A DNA stretch of 64,000 bases from Streptosporangium soli (GCA_022213955.1 JAKNTW010000009.1:213580-277579), one strand, 5' to 3'; positions 10,739-51,730 are shown, numbered from the stretch's first letter. Program-made: numbers and translations. The notes: a model not told the origin generated them from the letters alone.

Positions 10739-11761
10739 ATGCGGGTCGGGGTGTTTCTGCTGGCGGCTCGGTTTCCGGGGATGGCGGCGGGAGAGGTGAT
10801 CGCGAACACGGTGGACGCCGTGGTGGCGGCGGAGGCGGCCGGGTTCGACGACGCGTGGATCGCCGAGCATCACTTCATGTCGTACGGCGTGTGCCCGTCG
10901 GCGGTGGCGTTGGCCGGCGTGGCGCTGGGCCGTACCAGCCGGATCGAGGTGGGGACGGCGGTGAGCGTGCTGTCGACGCAGCATCCGGTGGCGCTGGCGG
11001 AGCAGGCGGCGGTGCTGCACCACGCGTCCGGCGGGCGGTTCAGGCTGGGGGTCGGCAGGGGCGGGCCGTGGCTGGACCTGGAGGTGTTCGGGACCGGGAT
11101 CGAGCGGTTCGAGTACGGCTGGCGGGAGTCGCTCGACCTGCTCTGCGCGGCGTTGTCCGAACGGGCGGTGTCCGCGGACGGGAGGTTCTTCCGGTTCCGC
11201 GAGGTGGCGATGGTGCCGGGGGCGGCGGGGACGGGACTGCGGCCGGTCGTGGCGTGCACGTCGGAGAGCAGTGTGGCGCTGGCGGCGGAGCGGGGGCTGC
11301 CGATGTTGCTGGGGATGCACGTCGGCGATGAGGAGAAGGCCGCCATGATCGCCGACTATGCCCGGCAGGCCCAGGGGACCGGTCTGCGGGAGACGCGGCA
11401 TGTCGCGGCGGGGGTCGGGTTCGTGGGGGATACGACGGCGGAGGCCGTGCGGGAGCTGGCGGGGGCGATGCCGGCGTGGCTTGAGCCGGGATTGGCGGGT
11501 TACGTGCCGGTAGACGGGAGAGCACGGCCGAAGCGCGATATTTCGGCCTATGTCGAGATGCTCTGTCGTATCCACCCCGTCGGCTCGCCCGAGCACTGCG
11601 TGCGGACGATCGCCAGGACCGCTCGGCGGACGGGGGTGCGGCACCTGATCCTCATGGTGGAGGGTGCGGGCGATCACGCCCGCACCCTGGAGAACATCAC
11701 CAGACTCGGTGCCGAAGTGCTGCCCGCGTTACGTCAGCAGTCGACGAGCTCGGGCTCCTGA
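10739..11761 (+). CDS. LLM-class flavin-dependent oxidoreductase (luciferase-like monooxygenase)
   Basis: ORF 10682..11761 trimmed to MRVGVFLL. TIM-barrel LLM signature region AEHHFMSYGVCPS...GRFRLGVGRG. Confidence 0.8.
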   Translation: MRVGVFLLAARFPGMAAGEVIANTVDAVVAAEAAGFDDAWIAEHHFMSYGVCPSAVALAGVALGRTSRIEVGTAVSVLSTQHPVALAEQAAVLHHASGGRFRLGVGRGGPWLDLEVFGTGIERFEYGWRESLDLLCAALSERAVSADGRFFRFREVAMVPGAAGTGLRPVVACTSESSVALAAERGLPMLLGMHVGDEEKAAMIADYARQAQGTGLRETRHVAAGVGFVGDTTAEAVRELAGAMPAWLEPGLAGYVPVDGRARPKRDISAYVEMLCRIHPVGSPEHCVRTIARTARRTGVRHLILMVEGAGDHARTLENITRLGAEVLPALRQQSTSSGS

Positions 11762-12120
11762 TTGAGGATCTGCGACCTCGGGGTGACGAAGTCGCGCAGG
11801 GCCTCGGTGGCGGTCGGGTCGAACACGGCTACGCGGTGGCAGTTCTGGAAAGCCAGCCGCATCCCGAAGTGACGCTCCAGCGCGTTGCGCATGGCGTCGC
11901 TCGCCAGGCAACGCAGGAGCTGGCCGCGCGCGGCCTCGTCGGGGGGCGGGGTCTGGTTGTCCGCGAAGGCGGAGCCGGTCCTGTCGCGCTGTTCGACCAG
12001 CTCGCTGATCACCGACCAGGCGTAGGGCAGGGAGTTCCGGATGCAGGCGATGAACGCCGCATCGTCGACCTCACCCGTTCTGGCCTGGTCAAGAAGATCA
12101 TTGGGAACGGTCAGCGACAT
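11734..12120 (-). CDS. SCO5389-family conserved actinobacterial protein
   Basis: ORF trimmed to MSLTVPNDLL. Strong RBS GAGAGGAGA upstream. Family assignment from recalled similarity only. Confidence 0.55.
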   Translation of the reverse strand: MSLTVPNDLLDQARTGEVDDAAFIACIRNSLPYAWSVISELVEQRDRTGSAFADNQTPPPDEAARGQLLRCLASDAMRNALERHFGMRLAFQNCHRVAVFDPTATEALRDFVTPRSQILNQEPELVDC

Positions 12121-12186
12121 GCTGCTGTCTCCTCTCAAAGGGGATCACATTGACGCTAGGTGGGGGTAGGGGAACACTCCATATGG

Positions 12187-13152
12187 CTACGAAGCGACAG
12201 TCGTGTGTGCGGGGCCGTAGACGAAGTCGGGATCGATCTGCGCGGCGAGATCCTGGCCGGTGGCCCGGTTGGCCCACGCGTCGGCGTTGCGCAGGTGGAA
12301 CTCCACGGCCTGGTCGCCGAAGCGCGCCCAGTTCTTGGGCCGGTTGTCGAGGATCTTGAGCAGCATGGCCAGGGAGTCGGCGTTGGCCGGCTCCAGGTCG
12401 TCGAGGGCGAACGGCCTGCCCTGCTCCAGCGCCCGCACCGCCGGGCTGTGCTCGAACCAGGTGACCAGGTCGTCGCCGACGTGCCGGCGGAGGAAGGCGA
12501 GATCGTCGGGACCGTGCACCTTGTTGCCGACGACCGCGACCGGCACGCCGTGCTCGGCGGCGTAGTCACGGTACTGCCGGTAGACGCCGACGCCCTGGCG
12601 GGTCGGCTCGGCGACCAGGTAGGTCAGGTCGAAGCGGGTGAACAGCCCGGAGGCGAAGGAGTCGGCCCCCGCGGTCATGTCGACCACGACGTATTCGTCG
12701 GGACCGTCGAGCAGGTGGTTGAGGTAGAGCTCGACCGCGCCGACCTTGGAGTGATAGCAGGCCACACCGAGGTCGTCCTCGTTGAACGGCCCGGTGACCA
12801 TCAGCCAGGCCCCCTCCGGCGTGGTGGTGGCGAACCGGTCGTGGATCGGGTCGTCGCGCTCGCCGAGGTCGAGCAGGTTGGAGCCGCGGCCGGGCGGGGT
12901 CGTCTTGACCATGGCCGCGGCGGAGGTGATGCGCGGATTGTCGCCTCGCAGATATTCCTTGATCTCCGTGAGGTGGGCGCCCATCGGCGGGGGCAGCTCC
13001 GTGTCCTCAACGCCGAGGATCATGCCGAGATGCTGGTTGATGTCGGCGTCGATCGCGACGACGGGCCCGCCCTGGCTGGCCACGTATCTCGCGAACAACG
13101 CGGACAGAGTCGTTTTGCCGCTGCCGCCCTTGCCGACGAACGCTACCCTCAC
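12187..13152 (-). CDS. ParA/MinD/ArsA-type P-loop ATPase
   Basis: Deviant Walker A VAFVGKGGSGKTT near the N-terminus. Probable GTG start at 13152; an upstream ATG at 13182 is also possible. Confidence 0.7.
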   Translation of the reverse strand: MRVAFVGKGGSGKTTLSALFARYVASQGGPVVAIDADINQHLGMILGVEDTELPPPMGAHLTEIKEYLRGDNPRITSAAAMVKTTPPGRGSNLLDLGERDDPIHDRFATTTPEGAWLMVTGPFNEDDLGVACYHSKVGAVELYLNHLLDGPDEYVVVDMTAGADSFASGLFTRFDLTYLVAEPTRQGVGVYRQYRDYAAEHGVPVAVVGNKVHGPDDLAFLRRHVGDDLVTWFEHSPAVRALEQGRPFALDDLEPANADSLAMLLKILDNRPKNWARFGDQAVEFHLRNADAWANRATGQDLAAQIDPDFVYGPAHTTVAS

Positions 13153-13256
13153 GCCTCGATCCAATCTGATTATGAAAACCATTGCAACCCTGGAGGGCTC
13201 ATCATGCCACGGTCGCGAGGCGTTCCGCCGGGGTATGAGCGATCGGGGGGAACAAG

Positions 13257-13571
13257 ATGGCCTGGTTGGTGCTCTTCGTGTCGGGAATCCTGGAGACCGT
13301 CTGGGCCGTGGCCCTGGACAAATCCGAGGCGTTCTCCAAACCGCTGGCCACGACGGTCTTCGTGGTGGCGCTGATCCTGAGCATGATCGGTCTCGGCTGG
13401 GCGCTTCGCGACATTCCGGTCGGTACGGCGTACGCGATCTGGGTGGGCATCGGCGCCATCGGCACGGCAGTCGTCGGCATGGCCTGGCTCGGCGAGTCGG
13501 CCTCCCTGCCGAGGATCGCCTGCCTGCTGCTCGTGGTGGCCGGTGTGGTGGGACTGAAGATCTACCACTGA
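13257..13571 (+). CDS. sugE: SMR family quaternary-ammonium-compound efflux transporter (SugE/EmrE-like)
   Basis: 104 aa, four TM helices, conserved membrane-embedded Glu (ILETVWAV) characteristic of SMR proteins. Confidence 0.85.
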   Translation: MAWLVLFVSGILETVWAVALDKSEAFSKPLATTVFVVALILSMIGLGWALRDIPVGTAYAIWVGIGAIGTAVVGMAWLGESASLPRIACLLLVVAGVVGLKIYH

Positions 13572-13600
13572 CGCGGAGCGCTCGTCCCAGCCGTCAGGGC

Positions 13601-14914
13601 TTAGCAGGTTTCGTCGAGGGAGACGGGGGTGCTCCTGGCCGGGCTAGGTGTGGCGGCCGGCCGGGGGGCGGTCCCGTGGAGCGACTCGGCCGTCTTGCGC
13701 CTGATCAACGCATAGTCGGGGGTGGCCGGGTCGATCAGCGGGGGGACGAACTGGAGGCTCTTGATCTCCGAGTCGCGGACCCGCTGCGACAACTCGATCA
13801 GGCCGGGCAGCAGGCTCTGTGGGATGTCGGTGGACACCGCCTGCCTGGCGGCGCGGGCCAGCCGGTCGAAGCCGCTGAGCAGGGTCGCCGGTCCGGCCTG
13901 CCTCGCGACCGCGTTGAGCAGGCACTTCTGACGGGCCATCCGGACGTAGTCGCTGCTGTCGGTGCGTGACCTGCCGTACCAGAGGGCAGCCTCGCCGGAC
14001 AGCCTCCGGGTGCCCGCCGGGATCAGCCCTTCGCGACGCGAGCCGTACACGATGGGTTCCCTGACCTTCACCGTCACGCCGCCCATGGCGTCGATGATGT
14101 CGGCGAATCCCTTCATGTCGACCATCGCGTAGTAGTGGACGGGCAGGCCGAGGATGCCCGAGACGGTGTCCTTGAGTAGTTTCGGGCCGCGTTTGCCGGT
14201 GGGGGTGTGCGGGACCATCTCGGGGTGGTCCTCGGCGTACTGGAAGATCTCGTTGAGGATGCCGGGGGTCAGGGGAGGGTCGCCCGCGAAGCCGTACGGG
14301 AAGCGTCTCCTGGCGGGGCCGTCGGGCATCGGGACCCGTTCCAGGTTGCGGGGGAGTCCGAGCAGTACGGCTCTGCCGGTGCGGACCTCGATGGAGGCGA
14401 GGGTCACGCTGTCGGTGCGGATCCCTTCGCGGCCGGTGGCGGCGTCGGCGCCCAGCAGCAGGATGTTCACCCTGTCCTTGCCGCTCCACGGGTCGTGCGC
14501 GCGGCCGAACATGCCGGTGATGAGGTCGCCCGAGAGGTAGGCCACCCTGGCCGCGTGGACCGCAGGGACGATGACGAGCAGGCAGAGCGCGGCCGTCAGC
14601 AGACGGGTGACGGCGGCGGGCCGTACCAGGCGGTAGGAACAGATGATCACGGCGGCCCAGGCCAGGCCCAGCACGACCAGGCCCACGGCGAGCCCCGCCA
14701 GCCATCCCGGGCGTACGGCGAGCCCGAGCAGACGGGCGCGGTGGCCGGAGAGCATGACGACGCCGGCGCCCACCAGCGTCGCCTCGACCGCGAGCAGCAG
14801 CAGACCGGTCAGCCGGCGTCCCGTGACGAGATGGGCGAGCCCCCAGATCACCGCCGATCCGAACGTGAGCGCCGCGCTCGCCCCCAAGCCGAACCGGCCA
14901 CCACTCTCCGTCAC
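13601..14914 (-). CDS. LCP family protein (LytR-CpsA-Psr cell-wall glycopolymer transferase)
   Basis: N-terminal TM segments followed by an LCP domain (ILLLGADAATGREGIRTDSVTLASIE...YYAMVDMKGFADIIDAMGGVTV). Confidence 0.8.
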   Translation of the reverse strand: MTESGGRFGLGASAALTFGSAVIWGLAHLVTGRRLTGLLLLAVEATLVGAGVVMLSGHRARLLGLAVRPGWLAGLAVGLVVLGLAWAAVIICSYRLVRPAAVTRLLTAALCLLVIVPAVHAARVAYLSGDLITGMFGRAHDPWSGKDRVNILLLGADAATGREGIRTDSVTLASIEVRTGRAVLLGLPRNLERVPMPDGPARRRFPYGFAGDPPLTPGILNEIFQYAEDHPEMVPHTPTGKRGPKLLKDTVSGILGLPVHYYAMVDMKGFADIIDAMGGVTVKVREPIVYGSRREGLIPAGTRRLSGEAALWYGRSRTDSSDYVRMARQKCLLNAVARQAGPATLLSGFDRLARAARQAVSTDIPQSLLPGLIELSQRVRDSEIKSLQFVPPLIDPATPDYALIRRKTAESLHGTAPRPAATPSPARSTPVSLDETC

Positions 14915-14979
14915 TCACCACAGGTTAGTTACGTTTGCATCCATCCGGTGGCGACGCGCGGCAACCCCCCTGAACTGGG

Positions 14980-15903
14980 TCACCAGGTGGCGGCCCCGGT
15001 GAAGGAGGTGCCAGTCGGGTGATAACGCAGCGTGCTCATCGCCGCGGAGATGTCCAGCGTGCGCTCGACCGCCAGGTGACCGGCCGCGTAGCGGGTCAGG
15101 CGCGGCGGGCGGCTCACGCCGAGCAGCCGGTGAACGGTCTCGGCCATGGCTGCGACGGGGTGGACCAGGCCGGCGGGCAGATAGTACGGCTCGGCGGGCA
15201 CGTTCCGTTCCGCCAGGATCGCGCGCAGGGCGTCGTCCAGCACGACCGGCTCGGCGTCGGCCACGTTGAACACCCCGCGATCGACCGGGCCCGAGGCGGC
15301 CAGCAGGCAGGCGCGCACCAGGTTGTCCACCGAGGTCAGGCTGATCCGCTGGCGGCCGTCGCCCACCGCGAGCAGCCTGCGCCCGCGCACCGCGCCCAGC
15401 ACCCGGGGAAGCAGCGTGGTGTCGCCCTTGCCGTAGACCGCGTGCGGCCGCAGCACCACCGCCCGCCCCGCCACGACCCGCTCCGCCGCCGCCTTCGACG
15501 CCCCGTAGGCGTTGACGTATCTCCTGACCGGCGCCTCCTCCTCCCGCGCCCGGACCGTGGGCCGGAACGGGTCATAGACGCTGGCCGTGCTCACCTGCAC
15601 GAACCGCGCCCCAGGGAACCCGGCGGCCACATTACGCGTACCGGTCACGTTCGCCGCCCAGATCCCGCGCGGCGGCCCCCAGTCGGTGACGCTGCCCGCA
15701 CAGTGGATCACCGCCGCCACCTCGGGCAGCCGGTACGGCGCCGCCCGCGTGATGTCCCATGCCCGATATGGCGCCCCCGCCACGTGCCCGGCCGCCACCT
15801 GCGCCCGCCTGCCGTACGCGCGCACGTCCCACCCCGCGGCCACCGCCGCCCGGCACACCGCCCCGCCCACGAACCCCGAGGCCCCCGTGACCGCCACGAT
15901 CAC
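14980..15903 (-). CDS. NAD-dependent epimerase/dehydratase
   Basis: Rossmann motif IVAVTGASGFVGGAV. GTG start that overlaps the upstream mini-ORF stop (GTGA). Confidence 0.8.
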   Translation of the reverse strand: MIVAVTGASGFVGGAVCRAAVAAGWDVRAYGRRAQVAAGHVAGAPYRAWDITRAAPYRLPEVAAVIHCAGSVTDWGPPRGIWAANVTGTRNVAAGFPGARFVQVSTASVYDPFRPTVRAREEEAPVRRYVNAYGASKAAAERVVAGRAVVLRPHAVYGKGDTTLLPRVLGAVRGRRLLAVGDGRQRISLTSVDNLVRACLLAASGPVDRGVFNVADAEPVVLDDALRAILAERNVPAEPYYLPAGLVHPVAAMAETVHRLLGVSRPPRLTRYAAGHLAVERTLDISAAMSTLRYHPTGTSFTGAATW

Positions 15904-16151
15904 GGCGACACCGCGCTTGGGAGGCGCGATACCGCGCTTGGGAGGGTGGAGCGTCCGGGGTCGGTGGTCGCCCTGCCCTGGAGGGTGGTGCGTCCGGGGT
16001 CGGTGACGGTGGTTGCCCTGGTGTGGAGGGTTGTGCGTCCGGGGGTGGTCGTCGTGTTTTGGAGGGTGGTGCGTTCAGGGTCGGTGACGGTGGTCGCCTC
16101 AGCCTGGAGGGTGAGTTCGGGGAGGGCGCGGTGGCGGTCGGTGGCGGTCAT
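15900..16151 (-). other. junction-repeat mini-ORF (83 aa, Thr-rich 13-aa repeats ATTVTDPGRTTLQ) coupled between acyl-CoA ligase and epimerase
   Basis: ATG overlaps the acyl-CoA ligase stop (ATGA) and its TGA overlaps the epimerase GTG (GTGA). The repeats echo the ligase C-terminus RATVTR. Underlying DNA tandem repeats span 15905-16145. Confidence 0.3.
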
Positions 16152-17644
16152 CGTGTCACCGTCGCGCGGAGGGCGGCGCGGTCGAGTTTGTCGGCGCGGC
16201 CGGCGCGTGGGAAGGCGTCGAGTACGGCGATGCGGTCGGGAAGGGCGCCGGTGTCGACGAGCTCGGGAAGGGCCTTGCGAACGAGAGACTCCTCGAATCC
16301 CGCCTCGGGGACCAGCGCCAGCACGACCTCCTCGTCGCCGGTCGCCTCGTCGGCGAGGCCGATGATCGCCGCCTCCGCGACCCCGGGGAGCGCGGCGATG
16401 GCGGGCTCGTACAGCCCGGGATAGATGTTGACCCCGTCCCGCAGGATCATGTCCTTCTTCCGGCCGAGCAGCACCAGCCGGCCCTTGTCGTCGATCCGCA
16501 CCAGATCCCCGGTCGCGACCTCGTCGTGCGGCGGTTCGCCCAGGTAGCCACGGGCGAGGTGCGGCCCGGAGACGAACAGCTCGCCGTCGCCGGCCAGCCG
16601 TACTCCCACGTCCGGCAGCGGTGTGCCCAGCAGGTCGCCCTCCGGGTTGGCCAGTTTGTCCTCCGCGTCCGCGATCGCGATCGGCAGCGCCTCCGTCATC
16701 GCGTAGACCGAGAGCACCCGCACGTGCGGGCCCGCCGTGATCGCCCTGCGCAGCACGGCGGGCGGTGCGGGAGCCGCGCCCAGCAGCAGGTAGCGCAACG
16801 TGCCGGGCAGTTCGGGGGTCTTCCTCAGCAGGGCGTCCAGCCGGACCGGCACGCAGAAGGTGTGCGTCGCCCGCCGCTCGCCCAGTTCGGCCGTGAACCG
16901 TTCGGCCGCCCCGGGCAACGACCACGTCGCGCCCGCCGTCAACGCCGGCAGACCCAGCATGAGCTGGTCGGTGTGCACCACATCCCCGGCTCCCAGCGGA
17001 AACGCCTCCCCGAACAGCTGCGCTCCCCGAGCCAGCGACCCCCGCGTGTGCACCACCCCTTTGGGCGCCCCCGTGGTCCCCGAGGTGAACACCACCACCG
17101 CCGGGTCATCGGCCGAGCCTCCGACAACCGCCCGATCCCCGACGCCGGAACGGGGAAGAGCGGTGAGCCGGGTGGCGTGTCGGGGCACACCGGGGAGCCA
17201 GGGGCCGGTGTAGAGATGACGGGCGGAGATGGCGGCGAGCCGGGGGAGGACCAGGCCCCTGCGGCGGGCGAGGCGGCGAAGGGGGCCGCTCAACAGGTAC
17301 GCCGGTGATTCGGTGATCACCCAGCGAGGCCGGGCCGCCGCGAGACGCCCGGCGAAGACCTCGGGGGCCAGCCCCGGATCGGCCAGCATGAGCATCCCGC
17401 CCGCAGCCACCGCCCCCAGCGCGAGCACCACCGCGTCCGGCCCCGGTCGCACCGCGAACAACACGGCGTCCCCGGCGGATATCCCGCCGAGCGCGTCCCG
17501 CACGGCCAGGACCCGCCGGCCCAACTCCCGGTAGGTCAGCTCCCGCCCGCGCCCGTCGATGACCGCGACCGCCTCCGGAGTACGGCGAGCAGCCGCGAGT
17601 ACCCCCTCGACGAGGTCAAATGTTTCACGTGAATCATCGTGCAT
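16148..17644 (-). CDS. AMP-dependent acyl-CoA synthetase/ligase
   Basis: 498-aa ORF with AMP-binding motifs (TSGTTGAPKGV, GELFVSGPHLARGY). Start overlaps the P450 3' end by 11 nt. Confidence 0.85.
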   Translation of the reverse strand: MHDDSRETFDLVEGVLAAARRTPEAVAVIDGRGRELTYRELGRRVLAVRDALGGISAGDAVLFAVRPGPDAVVLALGAVAAGGMLMLADPGLAPEVFAGRLAAARPRWVITESPAYLLSGPLRRLARRRGLVLPRLAAISARHLYTGPWLPGVPRHATRLTALPRSGVGDRAVVGGSADDPAVVVFTSGTTGAPKGVVHTRGSLARGAQLFGEAFPLGAGDVVHTDQLMLGLPALTAGATWSLPGAAERFTAELGERRATHTFCVPVRLDALLRKTPELPGTLRYLLLGAAPAPPAVLRRAITAGPHVRVLSVYAMTEALPIAIADAEDKLANPEGDLLGTPLPDVGVRLAGDGELFVSGPHLARGYLGEPPHDEVATGDLVRIDDKGRLVLLGRKKDMILRDGVNIYPGLYEPAIAALPGVAEAAIIGLADEATGDEEVVLALVPEAGFEESLVRKALPELVDTGALPDRIAVLDAFPRAGRADKLDRAALRATVTR

Positions 17645-18764
17645 GGGCTATCCACAGCTGTGCGTACGTGGGAATGAGGACCCGGCGAGCGGCCCGCCGG
17701 GCGACGATCCGGGGCCGGTGCCGCAGGACGACCTCCGCCACCGCCCGGATCTCGGCCTGAGCGAGCGGGTAGCCGATGCAGAAGTGCGGCCCGGCCCCGA
17801 ACCACAGGTGGCGCACCTCGGCAGGATGCTTCCGGGCAGGGTCGAAGGGACCGTAGGCGCGGGCGCAGTTGTGCGTGACGATCACCACCCGATCGCCCGG
17901 CCGGACCTGCACCCGCCCCACCCGGCCGGGTGCGGCGACCGAGCGCAGCATCACCGGCGTCGGCGTGGTGAACCGCATCGCCTCGTCGATGGCCGTGTCC
18001 AGGTCGAATTCGCTCGTCCCGTGGTCGTGCAGGAGCGCGACCAGGCGGGGGACGAAGGTGGCGACGGTCTCCGTGCCGGTGAGGAAGAAGGCTCCGGCGG
18101 CTCCCCGGGCCTCGGCTTCGGACAGGCCGAGGGAGCGCATCCGGCCCATCACGGTGGTCTCGCCGCCCCGGTGGTACGCGGCGGACGCGATGTCGCCGAT
18201 GCGGTCGAGGACCGCGCGGGCGACGGCGACCTGCCGGTCTGCGAGCCGCCGCGAACGCAGCGACACCATCGACACCACCCGCTCACCATCGGCGAACAGC
18301 TCCCTGGCCGCCTTCTCCCCGACCTCCTCCAGCCCGATCAGCCGGCCGATCACCGCCCCTGCCATCAGCCGCATCGAGTCCACCAGATCGACCGTCTCGC
18401 CATCGGCCAGCCGTCGTGAGAGGTCGGCGAGCGGCTCGTTCAGAACATCGCGGACCAGCGGATCAACGGAGGCGGGGGCGAAGAGCGGGGCGAGCTTGCG
18501 CCGCAGCGCGAGGTGGGCCTCGCCTTCCATGTTGAGCAACACGGAGGGGCCGAGGACGGGCGTCCAGAGGTCACCAGGCGAGCCGGGGCCGTCCTTGCGG
18601 AACCGGTCGTCCGTCAGCACCGCCCGCGCCACGGCGGCGTCGTTGACCACCACGCCGAGGCCCGGCACCCGCACCACCGGCCCCAGCCGGGCCAGCAGCC
18701 GCACCAGCGGGTACGCGACCGGGTGCGCGGCCAGGTACAGCCGTGTCTCGTGGTTGGAGATCAT
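17634..18764 (-). CDS. cytochrome P450
   Basis: Heme-ligand loop FGAGPHFCIG. Start assigned to MISNHE at 18764; an in-frame upstream ATG at 18920 lies inside the repeat array. Confidence 0.85.
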   Translation of the reverse strand: MISNHETRLYLAAHPVAYPLVRLLARLGPVVRVPGLGVVVNDAAVARAVLTDDRFRKDGPGSPGDLWTPVLGPSVLLNMEGEAHLALRRKLAPLFAPASVDPLVRDVLNEPLADLSRRLADGETVDLVDSMRLMAGAVIGRLIGLEEVGEKAARELFADGERVVSMVSLRSRRLADRQVAVARAVLDRIGDIASAAYHRGGETTVMGRMRSLGLSEAEARGAAGAFFLTGTETVATFVPRLVALLHDHGTSEFDLDTAIDEAMRFTTPTPVMLRSVAAPGRVGRVQVRPGDRVVIVTHNCARAYGPFDPARKHPAEVRHLWFGAGPHFCIGYPLAQAEIRAVAEVVLRHRPRIVARRAARRVLIPTYAQLWIAHAR

Positions 18765-18835
18765 CGCACCGCCGCCCCGGGCCAGGGCGGCAGCCGCTCG
18801 GCCGGGTACGGCTGTGCCTCGTGGTCCGCGATCAT
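18761..18835 (-). other. mini-ORF (24 aa) MIADHEAQPYPAERLPPWPGAAVR (repeat copy 3)
   Basis: ATGA overlap with the previous mini-ORF stop. Its own TGA overlaps the P450 ATG at 18764. Confidence 0.3.
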
Positions 18836-18999
18836 CGCACCGCCCTGGGCCGGGGCGGCAGCCGTACGGCCGGGTACGTGGCCGGGTGCGGCTGTGTCTC
18901 GTGGTCCGCGACCATTGCAACCGCCGCCCTGGGCCGGGCCGGTAGCCGTATGGCCGGGTACGTGATCGGGTGCGGCTGTGTCTCGTGGTTCGCGATCAT
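18832..18999 (-). other. mini-ORF (55 aa) MIANHETQPHPITYPAIRLPARPRAAVAMVADHETQPHPATYPAVRLPPRPRAVR (fused repeat copies 1+2)
   Basis: ATG overlaps the GT2 stop (ATGA). Its TGA overlaps the next mini-ORF ATG. Matches the tail of ORF 18832..19044. Confidence 0.3.
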
Positions 19000-19727
19000 C
19001 GCACGTCGATGACGTCGGGGCGGTAGTGGTGGTCGGCGTACCACGCGAGGGTGCCGACCAGGCCATAGGCGCGCAGCCGGCGCACGGAGCCGAAGACGAC
19101 GACGTCCCGCCGGGTGGCGTAGGCGGGGGTGAGCCGGCGGACGGCGTTGACCAGCGCGCGGTCCTCGTGCAGCTCCTCGATCGCGGTCCGGGGAAAGCCG
19201 CCCGCGCGCTCGTACAGGGAGGTGGTGATCGCCATGGTCGCACCGGGCATCATGACGTACGGCCCGCGATAGGCGGGATCGCGGTTGCCCGGCCGGAACC
19301 GGCCGAACAGCGCGGCCACCTCCACGACGAAGGGGATCAGCCGCCGCTCCCAGAACTTCAGCGGGAACTCGTCGGTCCGGGGCCGCAGTTGCCCGCCGAC
19401 CATCTCCAGCCCGTCGGCGAACCCCCGCCGGAGGTTGCGCACCCAGTCGTGGCGCGGCAGGCAGTCGGCGTCGGTCCTGGCCAGGTGGGTGGCCCCGGCC
19501 GCGATGGCGTGCCGCATGCCGGTGTCGGCAGCCGCGCCGGTGCCCTTGCGCGGCTCCCCGACCACCCGGACGCCGTGCCGCCGGGCGATGTCCGCCGTGC
19601 CGTCGGTGCTGTCGTTGTCCACCACCAGCAGCGTGAAGTCCTGGTCATCCTGTGCGGCGAGTGCGCGCAGCGTGCCCTCGATCCCGGCCGCCTCGTTGTA
19701 GGCGGGGACGATCACCCAGAGGTCCAT
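18996..19727 (-). CDS. family 2 glycosyltransferase
   Basis: ORF 18996..20120 trimmed to MDLWVIVPAYNEAAGIEGTLRAL...LLVVDNDSTDGT (GT-A fold, DxD). Its ATG overlaps the KAS III stop. Confidence 0.8.
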   Translation of the reverse strand: MDLWVIVPAYNEAAGIEGTLRALAAQDDQDFTLLVVDNDSTDGTADIARRHGVRVVGEPRKGTGAAADTGMRHAIAAGATHLARTDADCLPRHDWVRNLRRGFADGLEMVGGQLRPRTDEFPLKFWERRLIPFVVEVAALFGRFRPGNRDPAYRGPYVMMPGATMAITTSLYERAGGFPRTAIEELHEDRALVNAVRRLTPAYATRRDVVVFGSVRRLRAYGLVGTLAWYADHHYRPDVIDVR

Positions 19728-20686
19728 CACATCTCCGCCAGCATGACGCCCATGCTGATCCCGCCGCCGAGCCCGAGCATCGCGACCCGGTCGCCGGGCG
19801 ACCAGCCGCCGAGCGAGAGTTGCAGGGGCAGTGTGGCCGAGGCGCAGTTCCCGTGGTCGGGCAGGGTGACCACGAGCCGGTCGTCGGGGAGGTCGAGCAC
19901 TCCGGTCAGGAAGCGCAGGTACGGCATGGCCACCTGGTGGACGGCGACGACGGCGAAGTCGTCCCAGCCCAGGCCGGTGTGTTTGAGGGCGTTGAGGAAC
20001 AGGTCGGGGCCGACGAGTTCGAAGGCGGCCTTCATCCGGCGGCCGTCGCCCTTGAAGTAGGAGTACTCGGGGTCGCGGGGGTGGGCGGAGCCGCCGCCGG
20101 GGAGGGTGCCGACGCCCCACGCCGTACTATCTGCCGAAAAATCGCGGTAAAACACTCCGCGGCGGGCGTCCGCCGTCAGCAGCACCGCCGCCCCCGCGTC
20201 CGACAACGTGTAGCCCGCGAACGATTCGACGAACTGCGCCCGGTCGCTGACCTGCCAGCGGACCGCACGGGAGGGCATCTCGCCCGAGCACACCAGCACC
20301 CGGCGGTGCCCCCCGGTGCGGATCAGCGCCTCGGCCACCTGAATGCCGTTGAGCACGCTGTTGCACGCGTTCTTCACGTCGAACACCGGGCACGACAGCC
20401 CGAGCTTGGCCGACACGATGTGCGCGGTCGCGGGCTCGACCATGTCCTGCGAGGCCGAGGCGAAGATCAGCAGGTCGATCCCGTCGAGGTCCAGTTTCCT
20501 GGCCGCCGAGACGGCCAGGTCGGAGGCCTGCTGATCGTCGTCCGCCACGTGTCGCCACTGGATCCCGGTCATCCGCTCGACGATTCCCGCAGGCGGAACG
20601 TATCCCCGGATCCCCTTCTCCACCTGCGCACTGCTGAGCGTACGGCCAGGCAGAAACGTAGCGACGCCCGAAATGCGGGCCTTCAT
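19727..20686 (-). CDS. 3-oxoacyl-ACP synthase III (FabH-like) family protein
   Basis: Catalytic Cys in VKNACNSVLNG. His/Asn region HQVAMP...DHGNCASATLPL. 319 aa. Confidence 0.85.
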   Translation of the reverse strand: MKARISGVATFLPGRTLSSAQVEKGIRGYVPPAGIVERMTGIQWRHVADDDQQASDLAVSAARKLDLDGIDLLIFASASQDMVEPATAHIVSAKLGLSCPVFDVKNACNSVLNGIQVAEALIRTGGHRRVLVCSGEMPSRAVRWQVSDRAQFVESFAGYTLSDAGAAVLLTADARRGVFYRDFSADSTAWGVGTLPGGGSAHPRDPEYSYFKGDGRRMKAAFELVGPDLFLNALKHTGLGWDDFAVVAVHQVAMPYLRFLTGVLDLPDDRLVVTLPDHGNCASATLPLQLSLGGWSPGDRVAMLGLGGGISMGVMLAEM

Positions 20687-20772
20687 CCAACCCCCAGCTA
20701 GTAGGTCCTATTACCCGCGCAATGTAATGAACACGAGTTGCAACCTACTTGCCAAGGGACGGCACGGCCAGG

Positions 20773-22203
20773 TCAGGCCCGAGCCTCGGTGTTGCCGGCC
20801 TCCCAGTGGGTGTGGAAGGAGCCGTCCTCGTCGACCCGCCGGTAAGTGTGCGCGCCGAAGAAGTCGCGCTGGGCCTGGGTGAGCGCCGCCGGGAGCCGCT
20901 CGGCGCGCAGCGCGTCGTAGTAGGCGAGCGCCGAGCTGAACCCCGGCGCGGGGATGCCGAGCCGGGCGGAGGTCGCCACGACCTCGCGCCAGGCGTCCTG
21001 CCCGTCGGCGAGCGCCTCGGTGAAGTGGTCGTCGGTCAGCAGCGTCGGCGTCGAGGGATCGGCCTCGTACGCGCCCCGGATCCGGTCGAGGAACTTCGCC
21101 CTGATGATGCAGCCGCCCCGCCAGATCGTCGCCATCGCCCCGGCGTCGATGTCCCAGCCGTACTCCTTGCTGCCGGCCTGGATCTGGTTGAACCCCTGGG
21201 CGTACGCGATGATCTTCGAGGCGTAGAGCGCCTTCTCCACGTCGTCGGGTGAGACCGGGCTGCCCGCCGTACCCGTGCGGGCCGGGCCGGGCAGGCCGCG
21301 GCCGGCGCGGCGGAGGTCGGCGTGCCCCGACACCGAACGGGCGAAGACGGCCTCGGCGATCCCGCTGACCGGCACCCCGAGGTCGAGCGCGATCTGCACG
21401 GTCCAGCGGCCGGTGCCCTTCTGCTCCGCCTGGTCCAGGATGACGTCGACGAACGGCTTGCCCGTCTTGGCGTCGGTGTGTGCGAGCACCTCGGCGGTGA
21501 TCTCGATGAGATAGGAGCCGAGCCGGCCGGAGTTCCAGTCGGTGAAGACGTCGGCGATCTCGGCGGGAGTCAGCCCCGCGCCATGCCTGAGCAGGTCATA
21601 CGCCTCCGCGATGAGCTGCATGTCGGCGTACTCGATGCCGTTGTGCACCATCTTGACGAAGTGGCCGGCGCCGTCCGGGCCGACGTGGGTGCAGCACGGC
21701 GTGCCGTCCACCTTCGCCGAGATGCTCTCCAGCAGCGGCCCGAGCGCCTGGTAGGACTCCACCGAGCCGCCCGGCATGATGCTCGGGCCGTTCAGCGCGC
21801 CCTCCTCGCCGCCCGAGATCCCGGTGCCGACGAAGTGCAGGCCACGCTCGCGCAGCGCCGCCTCCCGCCTGCGGGTGTCGGCGAAGTGCGCGTTGCCGCC
21901 GTCGACGATCATGTCGCCGGGTTCGAGCAGCGGCGCGAACTCCTCGATCACCGCGTCGGTCGGCGCCCCCGCCTTGACCATGATGACCAGTCTGCGCGGC
22001 CGTTCCAGCGAGGCCACGAACTCCTCGGCGGTCTCGGCCGCCACGAACGTGCCCTCGTGTCCGAACTCCTCGACCAGGGCCTTGGTCTTGGCCGTGGTCC
22101 GGTTGTGCACCGCCACCGTGTGACCGTGCCTGGCGAAGTTCCTGGCCAGGTTGCGGCCCATGACCGCCAGGCCGGTGACCCCGATGACTGCCTTATCCGT
22201 CAT
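20773..22203 (-). CDS. gnd: NADP-dependent 6-phosphogluconate dehydrogenase (decarboxylating)
   Basis: Trimmed to MTDKAVIGVTGLAVMGRNLARN with RBS ggatggag. Strongly conserved 6PGDH sequence throughout. Confidence 0.9.
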   Translation of the reverse strand: MTDKAVIGVTGLAVMGRNLARNFARHGHTVAVHNRTTAKTKALVEEFGHEGTFVAAETAEEFVASLERPRRLVIMVKAGAPTDAVIEEFAPLLEPGDMIVDGGNAHFADTRRREAALRERGLHFVGTGISGGEEGALNGPSIMPGGSVESYQALGPLLESISAKVDGTPCCTHVGPDGAGHFVKMVHNGIEYADMQLIAEAYDLLRHGAGLTPAEIADVFTDWNSGRLGSYLIEITAEVLAHTDAKTGKPFVDVILDQAEQKGTGRWTVQIALDLGVPVSGIAEAVFARSVSGHADLRRAGRGLPGPARTGTAGSPVSPDDVEKALYASKIIAYAQGFNQIQAGSKEYGWDIDAGAMATIWRGGCIIRAKFLDRIRGAYEADPSTPTLLTDDHFTEALADGQDAWREVVATSARLGIPAPGFSSALAYYDALRAERLPAALTQAQRDFFGAHTYRRVDEDGSFHTHWEAGNTEARA

Positions 22204-22279
22204 GATCTGCTCCATCCGCACGCCGTCTGGACTTCAATCCTCTCGCTTATGGTGATACGGCGTGGCGGGCGGGCACGGC

Positions 22280-23380
22280 TCAGCCCGCTGCCAGGTCCAG
22301 GACCACCTTGACGTCGCCGGGATCGGGCTCGAACGCCTCGTGTGCCCGGGCCAGCGGGATCCGGCGTGTGATCAGGTGTTCCAGCCAGGATCGGTCGGCC
22401 GCCGCCAGCGCCTGCGCGGCCAGCTCGTAGTGCCGGAGGTTGGCGTTGACCGAACCGAAGACCACGTCGTTCTCCAGTACGATCTCGCGGTTGATCGCTC
22501 CCGCGTCCACCTGGAGGCGGCGTCCCGGCGCGGAGACCCCGGTCAGGCAGACGATGCCCGCCGAGGCGGTGTTCTCCACGGCGTCGAACACGATCGGGCC
22601 GACCCCGGTGGCCTCGATGATGATGTCCGGTTTGGTGTCTCCGACCGCCTCGGGGACCGACCCCTTGTGGTAGACGCCGCCCAGCTCGCGGACGAGATCC
22701 GGCTTGATGCCGCCGCTGACGCGGTCGAGGACGTGCACCTCAAGCCCGCGCTGCCTGCCCATCAGCGCGGCCAGCAGCCCGATCGGGCCGGCCCCGGTCA
22801 CCAGCACCCGTTCGGGCTGGAACCACGCCCGCGAGCCGATCCGCTCGATGTGGTCCCACGCCTTGGCGAGTACGGTCGCCGGCTCCATCAGCACCCCCAC
22901 CCGCTCCAGGCCCGGGTCGAGCTTCACCGCGTAGGCGGGCTCCACGGTCCACCGCTCGCTGCCGTAGCCCTGGATCGCCTTGATCCCGCGCTCGGTGTAG
23001 CGGCCGTTGCGGCACATGTCGAACTCGCCCCGCGCGCACGCCGGGCACGGGACCGGGTCCGGCCTGCGCACCACCCCGACGACGAGGTCACCCGGCGCGA
23101 ACGCCGACCCTTCGGGAGCCTGGGCCACCCGGCCGAGTGACTCGTGTCCGAGGATCAGCCGATCCTCGCCCGGGGGCGCCCAGCCGTACTCCGCCGCGGC
23201 GATCTCCCTGTCGGTCCCGCAGATGCCCAGGGCCAGGCCGTCGACGAGCAGCTCGCCCTCGCGCGGGACCGGATCGGGCACCTCCTCGACCCGCAACGAA
23301 CCCTGCTCACCGGGTCTCACCGTCAGTGCGCGCAACGTCCCCACCCCCTCGCAGGACGAATACCCCCTGAAGAAGGCCAT
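22280..23380 (-). CDS. zinc-dependent glucose 1-dehydrogenase-like MDR family dehydrogenase
   Basis: GHESLG zinc motif and a Cys cluster CPACARGEFDMC. Rossmann VLVTGAGPIGLL. The start may lie ~14 codons downstream at a TTG (MRALTVRPGE...). Confidence 0.75.
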   Translation of the reverse strand: MAFFRGYSSCEGVGTLRALTVRPGEQGSLRVEEVPDPVPREGELLVDGLALGICGTDREIAAAEYGWAPPGEDRLILGHESLGRVAQAPEGSAFAPGDLVVGVVRRPDPVPCPACARGEFDMCRNGRYTERGIKAIQGYGSERWTVEPAYAVKLDPGLERVGVLMEPATVLAKAWDHIERIGSRAWFQPERVLVTGAGPIGLLAALMGRQRGLEVHVLDRVSGGIKPDLVRELGGVYHKGSVPEAVGDTKPDIIIEATGVGPIVFDAVENTASAGIVCLTGVSAPGRRLQVDAGAINREIVLENDVVFGSVNANLRHYELAAQALAAADRSWLEHLITRRIPLARAHEAFEPDPGDVKVVLDLAAG

Positions 23381-23804
23381 TAGCCCAAGTTCGTGAACGC
23401 GTGACGGCTCCCCCCGGCATCGGTGCCACGCCCGAGCCGCCAAGCCCGGAAGATCCCGTGAACGCGCGCCGTCCCTGACGAAGATCGTCGAACGGCTCTG
23501 GTCAGGATCGGGTAGTACGGGCCGCTGGAACCGTCTCCTGCCGATGCCCGGCTTCGATGATCAGGCATCCGCCGGCAGGTCGCCGCACCACGTGATCACC
23601 GTCTGGGCGCCTCCACCGGTCAGCATGTCGGACGCCCCCTCGCCGCTGTGATTTGTGCCTATTTGGGTGGGTGGCACCTGCGTGGAAGCCCAACACCTGA
23701 GATACTGCAGGTAGTGGCCTCCGGGTCACTACGGCCATCCACGCAGCCGCGTCCCTCAGGAGGGCCATGTACAACGCCCGTCACCGAAGCAGCCTGCGCA
23801 GACC

Positions 23805-24425
23805 ATGAAGGATCACGCCGCCACCCGAGGCCGAGATGTAACGCTCGCCCTTACTTACGCCTGCAGTGTCCACGCCCACGAGATGGTGTTCGGACGCCGG
23901 CCCGAGGCCACTCTGCTGGAACGGGGCACATCCTGGGAGCCCCGGTTCGTCAGCCGTAAGCAGGAAGTCGTGGAGATGTACTCCCGGCTGCTCCTCGTCC
24001 GCCTGCGCGCCCGCGTCGACCGCCTCGCCGCGCTGGAGGTCGAGTGCCTCCGCCGGGCCTCCCTCGCGTCGCTGCCGCACGTCGTGTTCGCCGTCGCGCG
24101 CGGTACCGTGTCCGGCCGCAACTTCTCCGGGGTCCTGCGCGACGCGTCGTGGATCCTCTCTCCCATGCGGCGCCGCCAGTTCCGCCGCACCCACATCATC
24201 GCCGCCGACCTGGCCGCCGCCGCCCGCGCCACCGTCATGGCGGCCGGTGCGGCCAACGACCCGGTCACCCGTACCCGGCTCCTCGCGGCCACCCGCTACC
24301 AGGCCGCCCGCGACGCCCTCGACCTCTCCCTCGGCGACCCCTCCCTCGCCGGTCCCCCCGACCGCCTCCTCGCCGAGCTCAACTGGCTCGACACCCACCT
24401 CCCACCCCGCGAAGGCAGATCCTGA
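23805..24425 (+). CDS. hypothetical protein
   Basis: 206-aa ORF with very high GC3. Competing antisense ORFs are compositionally poorer. No recognisable domain. Confidence 0.5.
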   Translation: MKDHAATRGRDVTLALTYACSVHAHEMVFGRRPEATLLERGTSWEPRFVSRKQEVVEMYSRLLLVRLRARVDRLAALEVECLRRASLASLPHVVFAVARGTVSGRNFSGVLRDASWILSPMRRRQFRRTHIIAADLAAAARATVMAAGAANDPVTRTRLLAATRYQAARDALDLSLGDPSLAGPPDRLLAELNWLDTHLPPREGRS

Positions 24426-26073: not shown

Positions 26074-29000
26074 TCACTCGCCGTGGGCGGGGTGGTTCGA
26101 GGCGGCTCGGGTGATGGCGGTCTCCACGGCGGCCACCCGGTCGGCCACCAGGCCGAGGGCGCCGACGGCCCGGGTCATCGGGTCGTCCTCGGCGCCGCCC
26201 AGGGCCTGGGCGCGGAGGTGGCCGGCCTTGACCTCGGCCCATCGGGCGGCCTGGGCGGGGGTGAGGGCGCCGCGGAGTTCGGCGAGTTTGAGGAGGTTGG
26301 CCTCGGCGCCCGTGGTCAGGGTCTGGGCCTCGCCCAGATAGTGATCGTCGATCAGGGCTTCGAGTTCGGCGTCGTTCATCACGGGGACGATCCGCTCGGC
26401 CAGCTTGTTCATGTTGCGGTAGGAGCCCTGGAGCTGGAAGCGGGGCTCCATCCTGGCGGAGTCGGCCTGGGCGGCCGAGGCGATGTAGGCGCGGTTGTTG
26501 GCGAGCACGACCCGCTGCACCCGGAGGACCTTGCGCAGGACGGACAGGACCTGCTCCAGCTCGACCGTGGAGTAGGGGTGGGCGAGCTGGTCGGGGCGCA
26601 CCGAGTCGTCGCCCGCGGCGAGCCGTACGAGGCGGTCGATGTCGCCTCGGTCCCGGGTCGAGAGGGGGGCCAGGACCGGGTTGGAGGTGAGGGCGTTCTC
26701 CACGTAGCTGAGGGCGAAGACGTCGTCCCGGCCGGAGAGCACGTCGCCGAGGTTCCAGACGTCGGCGCGGTTGGCGAGCATGTCGGGGATCTGGAAGCGC
26801 CGGCCGGCCTCGGTGTAGGGGTTGCCCGCCATGCAGACGGCGAAGCGCTTGCCGCGCAGGTCGTAGGTGCGGGTGCCGCCGTCCCACACGCCCTCCATCC
26901 GGCGCTGGGCGTCGCAGAGGGAGATGAACTTCTGCAGCAACTCGGGGGAGGTGTGCTGGATGTCGTCGAGGTAGAGCAGCACGTTGTTGCCCATCTCCAG
27001 GGCGAAGGAGATCTTCTCGATCTCCTGGCGTGCGGTCGCGTTGGGGGCGTCCGCGGGATCGACGGAGGTGACGTCGTGGCCGAGGGCGGGGCCGTTGATC
27101 TTGACGAACACCAGGCCGAGACGGTTGGCGACGTACTCCATGAGCGTGGTCTTGCCGTATCCCGGGGGTGAGATGAGCAGCAGCAGGCCCATCTGGTCCG
27201 TCCGCTTGGCGTCACCCGCCGCGCCGAGCTGTTTGGCCAGGTTGTCGCCGATCAGCGGGAGGTAGACCTCGTCGAGGAGGCGGTTGCGGACGAAGGCGCT
27301 CATCACCTTCGGCTGGTACTCGGGCAGCCGGAGCCGTTGTCGCTCCGCGTTCACCAGGGCGGTGCGCCGCCGCTGGTAGCCGCGGTAGGCGGGGATCCGT
27401 TCCGTCCGGAAGACGCGGGTTCTGGCGAGGGTCTCGTCCAGGCGGAGGTCCAGGGCGCGTTCGTTGATCCGGGGATGCGCGCCGAGGAGCCCTTCGACGG
27501 TCGTCTCCAGGGTCGCCGCGGAGTCGTGGCGGGGAAGGTCGCCGCACAGCTGCAGGGCGACCGCTTCGGGCAGTTCCGCGGATCCCGCGTCGAACGAGCC
27601 GAGCCACGCCTCCGCGAGCTGACGGCGCGCGCCGAGATCGTCGCCGAGCGCCCGCAGGTCGTCCTCGTACTCCTCGATCCGGCCGGCGCCGAGGGACTTC
27701 CGGAACCGCTCCAGCAGATCCCTGGCCGCCGCGCTGGTGACGAAGCCGCCCGGGGTGGCCAGCTCCTCCGCCAGATACTCGCCCGCCAGCGGGGTCTCCA
27801 CCCGGAGGAAGCCGGTGACGGCCGCGGCCAACTCGGCGTGCAGGGCGGCCAGGGCGGAGGTGGGGCCGAACGTGGCGCGGGCGCGGGCGAGCGAGGCGGC
27901 CCGGGTGGCCCATGCCGTACGGCGGGCCTCGTCTGTGCCGTGCGCCCAGAAGAGCTGGGCGGCGGCGCGGGCCGACGGCGGGTAACGCAGCAGGCCGGCG
28001 GTGGCGTGCAGGCGGAGCAGCGCGTCGAGGATCGCGGCGGCGTCGTGGTCGTGGACGCCACGTTCGTAGCCCTCGTCGTACCGGCTCCCGGCGGCGGCTC
28101 GCACGATCTCCAGCAGCCCGTTCTCGGTCACCGCCGCCTCGTGCAGCGCGTCGAGGCCGAGCCCGGCTCCTGTCCCCGCGCCTGTCCCTGCGCCGGACCC
28201 GGCTCCTGACCCCGCGCCGGATTCGGCCTCGGCGAGGATCGCGGCGGCGAGGTGTTCGGCGCGGTAGACGGCGGCGGTCTCCGAGACGAGGAGCTGATCC
28301 CAGAAGGGACGGGTCTCCTCGAAGGTCGCGTCGCGGACCGGGGCGCGGTAGTCGGTGCCGGTGATCGCGTAGACCATCGTGCCGTCGTGGGGGACCAGGG
28401 TCAGGTCGATCGACTGGGTGTTGACCGCGAAGTGGTGCCGGCCGAGCCGGATGGTCTCGCCGCCCGCGCCGTACAGGTCGAGGCGGTCCCGGAGGGTACG
28501 GCCCGCCTCCTGGCGGGCGGCCTTGACGCGGCCTTCGAGCTCCTCGGCGCGGACCTGGTCGCCCAGCTCGCGCAGTTCCGCGGCGACCGAGTGGAGCTTG
28601 GCCACCATCGGGTCGGCCGCGAAGTAGGTGTTGACGTCGTCGAGCGACCCCAGGGTGGCGATCCTGCGCCGCACGCTGCCCAGGATGCGGTCGGCGGAGT
28701 CGGCGAGGCGGTCCGCACGGCGGGCCCGATCGTCGAGCAACGCCTGCTTGCGGGAGGAGAACGCCTCGTAGACGTCCTCCCGCTTGGTGGTCAGCTCGGC
28801 GAGGAACTCGTCGAACTCGGTGAACCGGGACTCCAGGTTCTCCAGTTGCAGGAGCAGCCGGCCGAGCTGGTCGTCGCAGCGGTCGGGGGTGTCGGCGACG
28901 GCGAGGGCGCCGGTCACGGCCTGGCCGATCAGCGCGAACTCGGCGGCGAACCCGGCGCGGCCCTCGACGGCCAGCAGTTCTCTGCGGCGGGCGTCCACGG

Positions 29001-37423: not shown

Positions 37424-37765
37424 CCACGCCCGCGCTCGGGCGGCTTGCCATACCCGCCGCTTGTTGCGTGCCGTACCTGCCCGTACGGCAAGCCACCCCG
37501 GCGCCCCGCGCCGCCCGTGGTGCGGTCCGTCGGGTCACGCCGCTCCAGCAGCGGTGGCGAGCCGCCGTCACGGCGTGCCTTGACGTGGGTTCTTCGGTAC
37601 GTCCGAAGGGCTTGAACCTGCCGCCACGAGGGGTCGGGTGTCCGGGGCCGGGGTGTGGTGTGGGCCCCGGCCGGGCCGGTGGTGTCGGCCCGGCCGGGGT
37701 GTTCGGTGGCGGCCGGTGATGGTGTCGGGGAACGTCAGGGGGCGGTCACGGGGCTCAGGGGGCGG

Positions 37766-51656: not shown

Positions 51657-51730
51657 CAGCGGGTCTGCGGGGTCCGGCCGGGTGGCGGCTGGGCGGCGAG
51701 ACGATCAGCGACGGGGAGACGATCGGATGA
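51653..51730 (+). other. junction-duplication mini-ORF (25 aa) MTAGLRGPAGWRLGGETISDGETIG
   Basis: ATG overlaps the LLM stop and its TGA overlaps the M24 ATG. Its C-terminus ETIG copies the LLM C-terminus (gagacgatcggatgac duplicated). Confidence 0.25.

Follow-up and report, generated by a model that had tools for sequence, protein, structure and literature searches.

The closest described counterpart of the gene cluster analyzed here is a region of the Actinoplanes atraurantiacus genome with genes for OleA, for a glycosyltransferase, for OleC, for a cytochrome P450 and for OleD, in a genome without oleB (Smith et al., mBio 2020, PMC7064751). The pathway proposed for that region comprises condensation, reduction, hydroxylation, glycosylation and β-lactone closure, and its product, predicted to be a β-lactone that is both hydroxylated and glycosylated, is uncharacterised; p-nitrophenyl hexanoate was hydrolysed in vivo by the OleA homologue but not by FabH of Escherichia coli, and the "OleC" was assigned from domain content alone (PMC7064751). 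Here we describe a five-gene operon of Streptosporangium soli, located on the minus strand between positions 14980 and 20686 of a 64,000-nucleotide (nt) stretch of DNA (GCA_022213955.1, JAKNTW010000009.1:213580-277579; hereafter the window; G+C content about 71%), which is most likely a member of this already noticed, uncharacterised ole/β-lactone variant and not a new kind of system. Our search of the later literature yielded no characterisation of the cluster or of a product. In the order of transcription, the genes are the following:

19727-20686, minus strand: ketoacyl synthase III (KAS III)-type thiolase, OleA-like (hereafter KAS), 319 amino acids (aa); Pfam ACP_syn_III and ACP_syn_III_C
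18996-19727, minus strand: small GT-A fold family-2 glycosyltransferase (GT2), 243 aa; Pfam Glycos_transf_2, E=1.5e-22
17634-18764, minus strand: short P450, 376 aa; Pfam p450; heme motif FGAGPHFCIG
16148-17644, minus strand: ANL-superfamily ligase in the OleC position, 498 aa; Pfam AMP-binding and AMP-binding_C
14980-15903, minus strand: OleD-like NAD(P)H-dependent short-chain dehydrogenase/reductase (SDR), 307 aa; Pfam Epimerase and 3Beta_HSD

The start of the P450 gene was placed by orthologue alignment. An earlier interpretation of this DNA, made from the sequence alone (the sequence-only reading), had listed the same five minus-strand genes and domains, and all of them are present exactly at the positions it gave. 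It had not recognised the gene set as a described pathway, a view that is superseded by the OleA glutamate in KAS, the OleD-like SDR and the five-domain set already noticed in A. atraurantiacus (PMC7064751). Homology to a characterised fatty-acid tailoring locus, which the same reading had named as an argument against itself, is found for two of the five proteins.

The five genes are one conserved functional unit, shared throughout an order of soil actinomycetes. A scan with one genome per species identified 337 genomes with a KAS relative, and the best 80 of these 337, all of them from Streptosporangiaceae or Thermomonosporaceae-type genomes and none from Micromonosporaceae, were kept together with an Actinomadura madurae locus, giving 81 loci, 78 of them untruncated, in which the gene order was determined by tblastn with the window proteins. 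The arrangement KAS-GT2-P450-ligase-SDR, with the same order and strand, is found in 65 of the 78 untruncated loci, so that the genes are collinear in relatives and not scattered, a point that the sequence-only reading had left to be checked. A reduced KAS-P450-SDR cluster, from which GT2 and the ligase are gone, is present in 11 Nonomuraea loci (L039, L050-L052, L054, L056-L058, L060-L062). A ligase relocated in Nonomuraea (P0213, L085 8001-9488) is 64% identical to that of the window and about equally distant (58-66%) from all in-cluster ligases; it follows rplM-rpsI-glmM, ATP-grasp_3 and Acetyltransf_6 genes, and its glmM, ATP-grasp_3 and Acetyltransf_6 neighbours, which occur neither in any cluster locus nor in the window, gave no functional lead. 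In one further locus, that of Rhizohabitans arisaemae (L067, 12937-14439), the ligase gene has the opposite orientation to the other four genes, and in one, that of Spirillospora sp. CA-294931 (L068), no SDR was found downstream of the ligase. In the loci that also carry gnd, the gene upstream of KAS in the window, the conservation of KAS, GT2 and P450 is close to that of gnd, and that of the ligase and SDR is lower (for example, in L002, gnd 87%, KAS 82%, GT2 84%, P450 82%, ligase 72% and SDR 74% identity). A chance run of unrelated housekeeping genes downstream of gnd would agree with the housekeeping nature of the flanking genes and with nothing else, but is refuted by the single gene order with overlapping stop and start codons in these 65 of 78 loci, across two families whose flanks differ, which indicates more than chance adjacency; we assign this explanation a negligible probability.

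The identity of KAS is best seen in its catalytic residues. Glu84, Cys108, His250 and Asn280 align with Glu117, Cys143, His285 and Asn315 of OleA from Xanthomonas campestris (Xc) and are invariant in 122 of 122 sequences. What this glutamate does has been documented for OleA, LstB and NltB (bioRxiv 10.1101/856955). The context of Glu84 is MVEPAT, compared with YLEPST in OleA and MQFPST or FVFPST in FabH, where phenylalanine takes its place in both aligned structures. The 71-aa segment from the glutamate to the cysteine finds OleA structures as its best PDB match, and KAS is 28.6% identical to full-length Xc OleA (103 bits). Each locus has a single KAS gene that carries both the triad and the glutamate, and one orthologue is labelled acyl-CoA:acyl-CoA alkyltransferase by JGI. 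Given that the residues match whereas the whole-protein scores do not discriminate, KAS belongs to a KAS III family of its own, in which the catalytic residues are of the OleA type. An exact-sequence look-up of KAS and of its annotated form P0001 returned no record. In the AlphaFold model of KAS, the sole low-confidence segment, with predicted local distance difference test (pLDDT) values below 50, spans residues 193-206, inside the conserved Gly/Pro-rich GTLPGGGSAHPRDPEYSYF.

The partner enzyme is a proposed OleD-like 2-alkyl-3-oxoalkanoate reductase and not the sugar-nucleotide-type epimerase of the sequence-only reading: its top NCBIfam matches, and thus its best curated families, are the two OleD models NF042423 and NF042422 (120 and 116 bits, with the cutoff of 580 not reached), followed at a margin of 70 bits by HpnA (49 bits). 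The SDR is about 31% identical to intact Xanthomonadales OleD over 319 aa; for comparison, Xc OleD and the validated NltD share 36% identity (10.1101/856955). It contains the Rossmann motif GASGFVGG and the catalytic YGASK, and YxxxK is found in 77 of the 81 loci. A hopanoid HpnA/HpnB pair was considered and rejected, with the SDR scoring 49 bits on HpnA (cutoff 368) and GT2 scoring 48 bits on HpnB (cutoff 379). A tblastn search with Xc OleB gave no match in the 64-kb window, and within 10 kb on either side of the 81 loci only three weak α/β-hydrolase matches, more than 5 kb upstream, were found in 3 of the 81.

The ligase has the ANL P-loop TSGTTG, the A8 motif GRKKD and the A10 lysine, Lys486, all conserved across the ligase-bearing loci. 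The heme-thiolate motif FGAGPHFCIG of the P450 is present in the window and in 79 of the 81 loci, the two exceptions being sampling artefacts, and this conserved heme cysteine rules out a heme-free P450 helper of the EryCII type; the best PDB matches are generic actinomycete P450s at about 50 bits. GT2, which is 68-88% identical in relatives, has its best NCBIfam match in TIGR04283 (MftF-like; 71 bits, below the cutoff) and its best PDB match at 31 bits; no hydrophobic stretch was seen in its sequence by eye.

These assignments suggest the following pathway. As the active-site residues and the gene context indicate, an OleA-like homodimer would join two acyl-CoAs head to head in a non-decarboxylative Claisen condensation, with Cys108 carrying the first acyl chain and Glu84 of the partner subunit deprotonating the α-carbon of the second, to give a 2-alkyl-3-keto acid, and the OleD-like SDR, judging by its family, would reduce the keto acid with NAD(P)H to a 2-alkyl-3-hydroxy acid. 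These two steps, taken alone, are likely. The ANL enzyme, going by its position, would adenylate the free carboxylate, and attack by the 3-hydroxyl could then close a β-lactone, as in the ole, lipstatin and nocardiolactone pathways; because there is no OleB, the β-lactone would not be decarboxylated to an olefin. The domains of the P450 and GT2 suggest that the former may hydroxylate one alkyl chain and the latter glycosylate a hydroxyl. Transcription would start from a promoter of the operon's own upstream of KAS, with translational coupling in the ancestral form. The complete scheme, that is, an ole-type lipid pathway without the decarboxylase that leads to a hydroxylated, glycosylated di-alkyl β-lactone, ring closure included, is tentative and in our judgment falls slightly short of an even chance.

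Several observations, which concern KAS, the ligase and the distribution of the operon, weigh against this scheme. KAS scores 134 bits on the OleA-type model NF006720/PRK09258 (cutoff 285; Xc OleA scores 478), about equal to its 139 bits on the FabH model, which is likewise below the cutoff. When its AlphaFold model (pLDDT 88.5) is compared with the PDB by Foldseek, FabH, PqsD, BioZ and OleA all match with template modelling (TM) scores of 0.84-0.87. The purified A. atraurantiacus OleA homologue did not condense C10-C16 acyl-CoAs (PMC7064751). The last two results are as expected if KAS were instead a decarboxylative condenser or acyltransferase similar to FabH, PqsD or BioZ that extends or transfers an unusual starter acid activated by the ligase, with the SDR, P450 and GT2 tailoring some other small molecule, for example, a β-hydroxyacyl glycoside. 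Such an enzyme would also account for the best full-length PDB and NCBIfam matches of KAS, which are FabH, for the alignment of residues 140-235 with FabH and not with OleA in phmmer, and for a length 19 aa below that of Xc OleA. It is difficult to reconcile, however, with the invariant glutamate at the FabH phenylalanine position, the lack of any acyl carrier protein (ACP) or malonyl-transferase gene in the operon, the specifically OleD-like partner SDR and the alkyltransferase annotation of the KAS orthologue. We consider a FabH-like role quite improbable.

The ligase is the weaker point of the β-lactone scheme. It scores 126 bits on the OleC-family model PRK09274 (cutoff 478; Xc OleC scores 761), its 25 best families do not include NF045786, the Xanthomonas OleC model, and it matches Xc OleC with 54 bits compared with 103 bits for FadD13 of Mycobacterium tuberculosis; furthermore, 940 cluster representatives, with E<=1e-30, are much closer matches to the ligase than Xc OleC is. 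The best NCBIfam match is PRK06187 (160 bits), Xc OleC itself reaches 55-79 bits against generic ANL structures, and the ligase shares 25-28% identity with 52 Xanthomonadales OleC sequences. In favour of an affinity to OleC, no models other than PRK09274 and PRK06187 are matched regularly by the 48 cluster representatives nearest to the ligase, and its N-terminal 186 residues find their best match in PRK09274. The β-lactone-synthetase clade, which includes LstC and NltC, is reported to be monophyletic (10.1101/856955). Membership of the ligase in this OleC/β-lactone-synthetase clade is not supported by our comparison, which covered Xc OleC, Xanthomonadales OleC, FadD13 and the NCBIfam models; a distant relationship to the clade is possible. 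Because the ligase thus falls outside the OleC clade by sequence, the β-lactone ring closure is assigned from position only. The Xanthomonadales contigs L082 and L083 are heavily frameshifted, which makes OleC and OleD comparisons with them unreliable, and were replaced by clean metagenome loci (L087-L166); another locus, L084, has oleA without oleBCD.

These ligase affinities suit an open-chain product, for which condensation and reduction are retained and the ANL enzyme is an ordinary acyl-CoA or acyl-AMP ligase that supplies a (hydroxy)acyl-CoA or activates the branched acid for transfer. The result would be a glycoside of a 2-alkyl-3-hydroxy fatty acid similar to mycolic acids, which would serve Streptosporangiales as a conserved envelope lipid and in Streptosporangiaceae might be handled further by the neighbouring LytR-CpsA-Psr (LCP) protein. 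The ligase is nearer to FadD13/FadD5-type fatty-acyl-CoA synthetases than to Xc OleC, with canonical A8 and A10 motifs, and the 11 Nonomuraea genomes that retain KAS-P450-SDR, with the 64%-identical ligase elsewhere, fit this possibility as well. They also show that GT2 and the ligase are dispensable from the locus, which, like the near-universal vertical conservation of the operon, unusual for a reactive β-lactone antibiotic, belongs to the observations adverse to the β-lactone scheme. The same conservation, with the operon in nearly every sampled species of two families and KAS, GT2 and P450 matching gnd, favours an open-chain lipid. Conversely, every characterised OleA, OleD and ANL trio (ole, lst and nlt) makes a β-lactone, and an OleC-family model is among the two best for the ligase family. 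We know of no mycolate-like lipid from these families, which also counts against the open-chain product. On balance, we regard the open-chain product as somewhat unlikely and continue to favour the β-lactone scheme.

The immediate surroundings of the operon bear on the envelope part of the open-chain alternative and on the transcription of the operon. The relevant features are:

20773-22203: gnd, 86 nt upstream of KAS
20721-20743, minus strand: promoter-like motif TTGCAA-N11-TACATT, with TTGCAA resembling a -35 box and TACATT a -10 box
13601-14914, minus strand: LCP gene, 65 nt downstream of the SDR gene; Pfam LytR_cpsA_psr

The positions of gnd upstream and of the LCP gene about 65 nt downstream confirm the sequence-only reading. 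No other neighbour of the operon in Streptosporangiaceae is nearly as conserved as the LCP gene, which lies within 10 kb of the operon in 57 of the 65 loci from this family, compared with 13 of 65 for gnd, and this synteny is in line with an envelope lipid. However, neither gene is found near the operon in any of the 16 Thermomonosporaceae-type loci, and a gene on the opposite strand lies between SDR and LCP in one Streptosporangium locus (L005) and one Nonomuraea locus (L060). No terminator or promoter evidence ties the LCP gene to the operon or separates the two in the window. The link to an LCP cell-wall transferase drawn by the sequence-only reading is not upheld by these counts; a functional connection between LCP and the operon is possible but unsupported. 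The acylated or glycosylated small lipid of the same reading fares better, inasmuch as an oxidised, glycosylated lipid-type product made without a polyketide synthase (PKS) or non-ribosomal peptide synthetase (NRPS) is supported as an interpretation, whereas its connection to the envelope through LCP is not. The conservation pattern could also be viewed as that of a vertically inherited lipid pathway of Streptosporangiales, as opposed to an antibiotic pathway, in which the OleA/OleD pair would produce α-alkyl-β-hydroxy acids in actinomycetes considered to be mycolate-free, and the P450, GT2 and non-OleC ligase would convert these into an envelope glycolipid that in Streptosporangiaceae the adjacent LCP protein might handle; we consider this unlikely.

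The operon probably begins at the promoter-like motif, which is unique in the window and lies within the 86 nt that separate the gnd stop from the KAS start. The pattern TTGCAAC…TACATTGCG is recognisable upstream of KAS in many Streptosporangiaceae loci whatever the upstream gene, which suggests that the operon has a promoter of its own. The motif scores under the threshold of a consensus scanner. In the window, it would leave a leader of about 30 nt with a Shine-Dalgarno-like GGGGG run; in Sinosporangium (L045 and L065), the -10-like box is about 9 nt before the KAS ATG, so that the KAS mRNA would be leaderless. We detected no Rfam match in 11000-24000 and no terminator-like site in 13400-22400. 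In agreement with the sequence-only reading, no PKS or NRPS is encoded among the ten flanking open reading frames (ORFs) scanned, which include a luciferase-like monooxygenase, a nucS shadow ORF, an SMR protein, a glucose dehydrogenase, LPMO10, a subtilisin inhibitor and a DUF3686 ATPase. The shadow ORF (11734-12138, minus strand) matches Pfam KH_NucS_shadow and hence is not a real gene but a shadow frame of the plus-strand nucS. The DUF3686 protein (26074-30999, minus strand; 1641 aa) combines DUF3686, annotated as an ATPase in DNA repair, with DUF7902 and an AAA domain, and its start overlaps by 4 nt a 669-aa ORF (30996-33005, minus strand) that has no Pfam match and an unusually low G+C content at second codon positions (GC2 0.38); the two genes may form a repair or defence module.

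The junctions between the five genes are of two kinds. The sequence-only reading had all five enzymes chained by overlaps of 1-11 nt, which is correct for two of the four junctions, where the GT2 ATG shares 1 nt with the KAS stop and the ligase start overlaps the P450 stop by 11 nt, but not for the other two, which are occupied by spacers:

18765-18995, minus strand: GT2-to-P450 spacer, 231 nt, tandem junction copies
15904-16147, minus strand: ligase-to-SDR spacer, 244 nt, with an 83-codon ORF at 15900-16151 including the flank overlaps

In the window, a chain of 4-nt overlaps arises only if non-conserved mini-ORFs are counted. In most relatives outside Streptosporangium, all four junctions measure -4 to +2 nt, and thus the continuous chain of overlaps is the ancestral layout and not that of the window. 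Both spacers are imperfect tandem repeats (Tandem Repeats Finder scores of 200-304 for GT2-to-P450 and 133-223 for ligase-to-SDR). The GT2-to-P450 spacer, with periods of 68 and 84 (scores 200 and 304), consists of a segment that spans the GT2 stop and the first ~26 P450 codons, present in three diverged copies with pseudo-starts at 18999, 18915 and 18835; the units share 65-70% identity with the first 84 nt of the P450 gene and 73-86% with one another, the GTGCGATGATC junction is retained in every copy, and the copies yield mini-ORFs of 55 and 24 codons that are joined by ATGA overlaps. The ligase-to-SDR spacer, with periods of 21, 45 and 81, is the 83-codon Thr/Pro-rich ORF, which shares ATGA with the ligase stop and GTGA with the SDR start and has a coding-like G+C content at third codon positions (GC3 0.83) and an atypical GC2 of 0.69. 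This ORF has no Pfam or NCBIfam match and is probably not a conserved protein, and neither spacer has a syntenic homologue, at the protein or the DNA level, in the 81 related loci. In many Streptosporangium species, the ligase-to-SDR junction holds other repeats, which derive from the ligase 3' end, are specific to the species and are 25-247 nt long. Real peptides encoded by the 83-codon ORF and the two mini-ORFs, such as a precursor of a ribosomally synthesized and post-translationally modified peptide or a substrate peptide, were therefore rejected given the lack of a family match, the lack of syntenic conservation in the 81 loci and the unrelated repeats elsewhere. The spacers read as neutral junction-spanning tandem duplications outside the pathway; a duplication of this kind regenerates an intact end for each flanking gene, an arrangement that we take to resemble mycobacterial MIRU arrays.

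Repeats of this type are found beyond these two junctions. In five Streptosporangium loci (L010, L011, L021, L035 and L036), the repeats of the ligase 3' end include the ligase stop codon. Low-complexity insertions give ligase lengths of 476-646 aa, with two hypervariable insertion sites after residues ~53 and ~170 in P0143, P0153, P0160, P0161 and P0205. At 51622-51772 of the window, between two unrelated plus-strand genes, there is a similar junction-spanning duplication with a period of 74 and a unit that contains GGATGAC with the stop/start overlap, which indicates that junction duplication is genome-wide and not specific to the operon. Further tandem arrays, with periods of 20-102 nt and the largest spanning about 470 nt, are located at 3014-3480, 6867-6941, 37646-37776 and 61822-61893.

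If the β-lactone scheme is correct, the operon is a compact pathway that leads, without a PKS, to a glycosylated di-alkyl β-lactone or a branched hydroxy-acid lipid, carried by nearly every species sampled of Streptosporangium, Nonomuraea, Planomonospora, Sphaerisporangium, Actinomadura and Spirillospora. Lipstatin, nocardiolactone and other β-lactone lipids inhibit serine hydrolases and are of interest to pharmacy, and five genes in 5.8 kb would be easy to express heterologously. The broad vertical conservation of the operon makes a structural envelope lipid an alternative to consider, and the published prediction of a β-lactone product should not be taken for granted because the "OleC" of this type of cluster lies outside the validated β-lactone-synthetase clade.

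Comparison with the known systems places the operon among the ole-type pathways. In Corynebacteriales, the FadD32-Pks13-CmrA system combines an adenylating enzyme, a Claisen condenser and a ketoreductase to make a 2-alkyl-3-hydroxy fatty acid that is linked to a sugar; the likeness is a functional analogy only, as the families are unrelated (type I PKS in that system and a KAS III-type thiolase here), and no homology is claimed. With oleABCD of Xc (locus L087), the operon shares a thiolase-fold condenser with Cys-His-Asn and a partner-chain glutamate, an OleD-type reductase and an ANL enzyme encoded in the same operon; it differs in the lack of OleB, in the additional P450 and GT2, in identities of 25-31% and in a ligase outside the OleC equivalog families. 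The Actinoplanes cluster has the same five domain types and, like the window, no oleB, and its OleA homologue is about as distant from Xc OleA (~29% identity) as is KAS of the window; this likeness is one of domain content, the cluster belongs to another family, Micromonosporaceae, and the window ligase does not pass as a member of the OleC clade by sequence. The lipstatin (lstABCD) and nocardiolactone (nltABCD) clusters are likewise actinobacterial, of the oleACD type and without oleB, and give di-alkyl β-lactones. They employ two KAS III homologues as a heterodimer, one of which lacks the triad and donates the glutamate, whereas the single KAS of the window has both, as does homodimeric OleA, and the window operon encodes the P450 and GT2 that the lst and nlt clusters lack.

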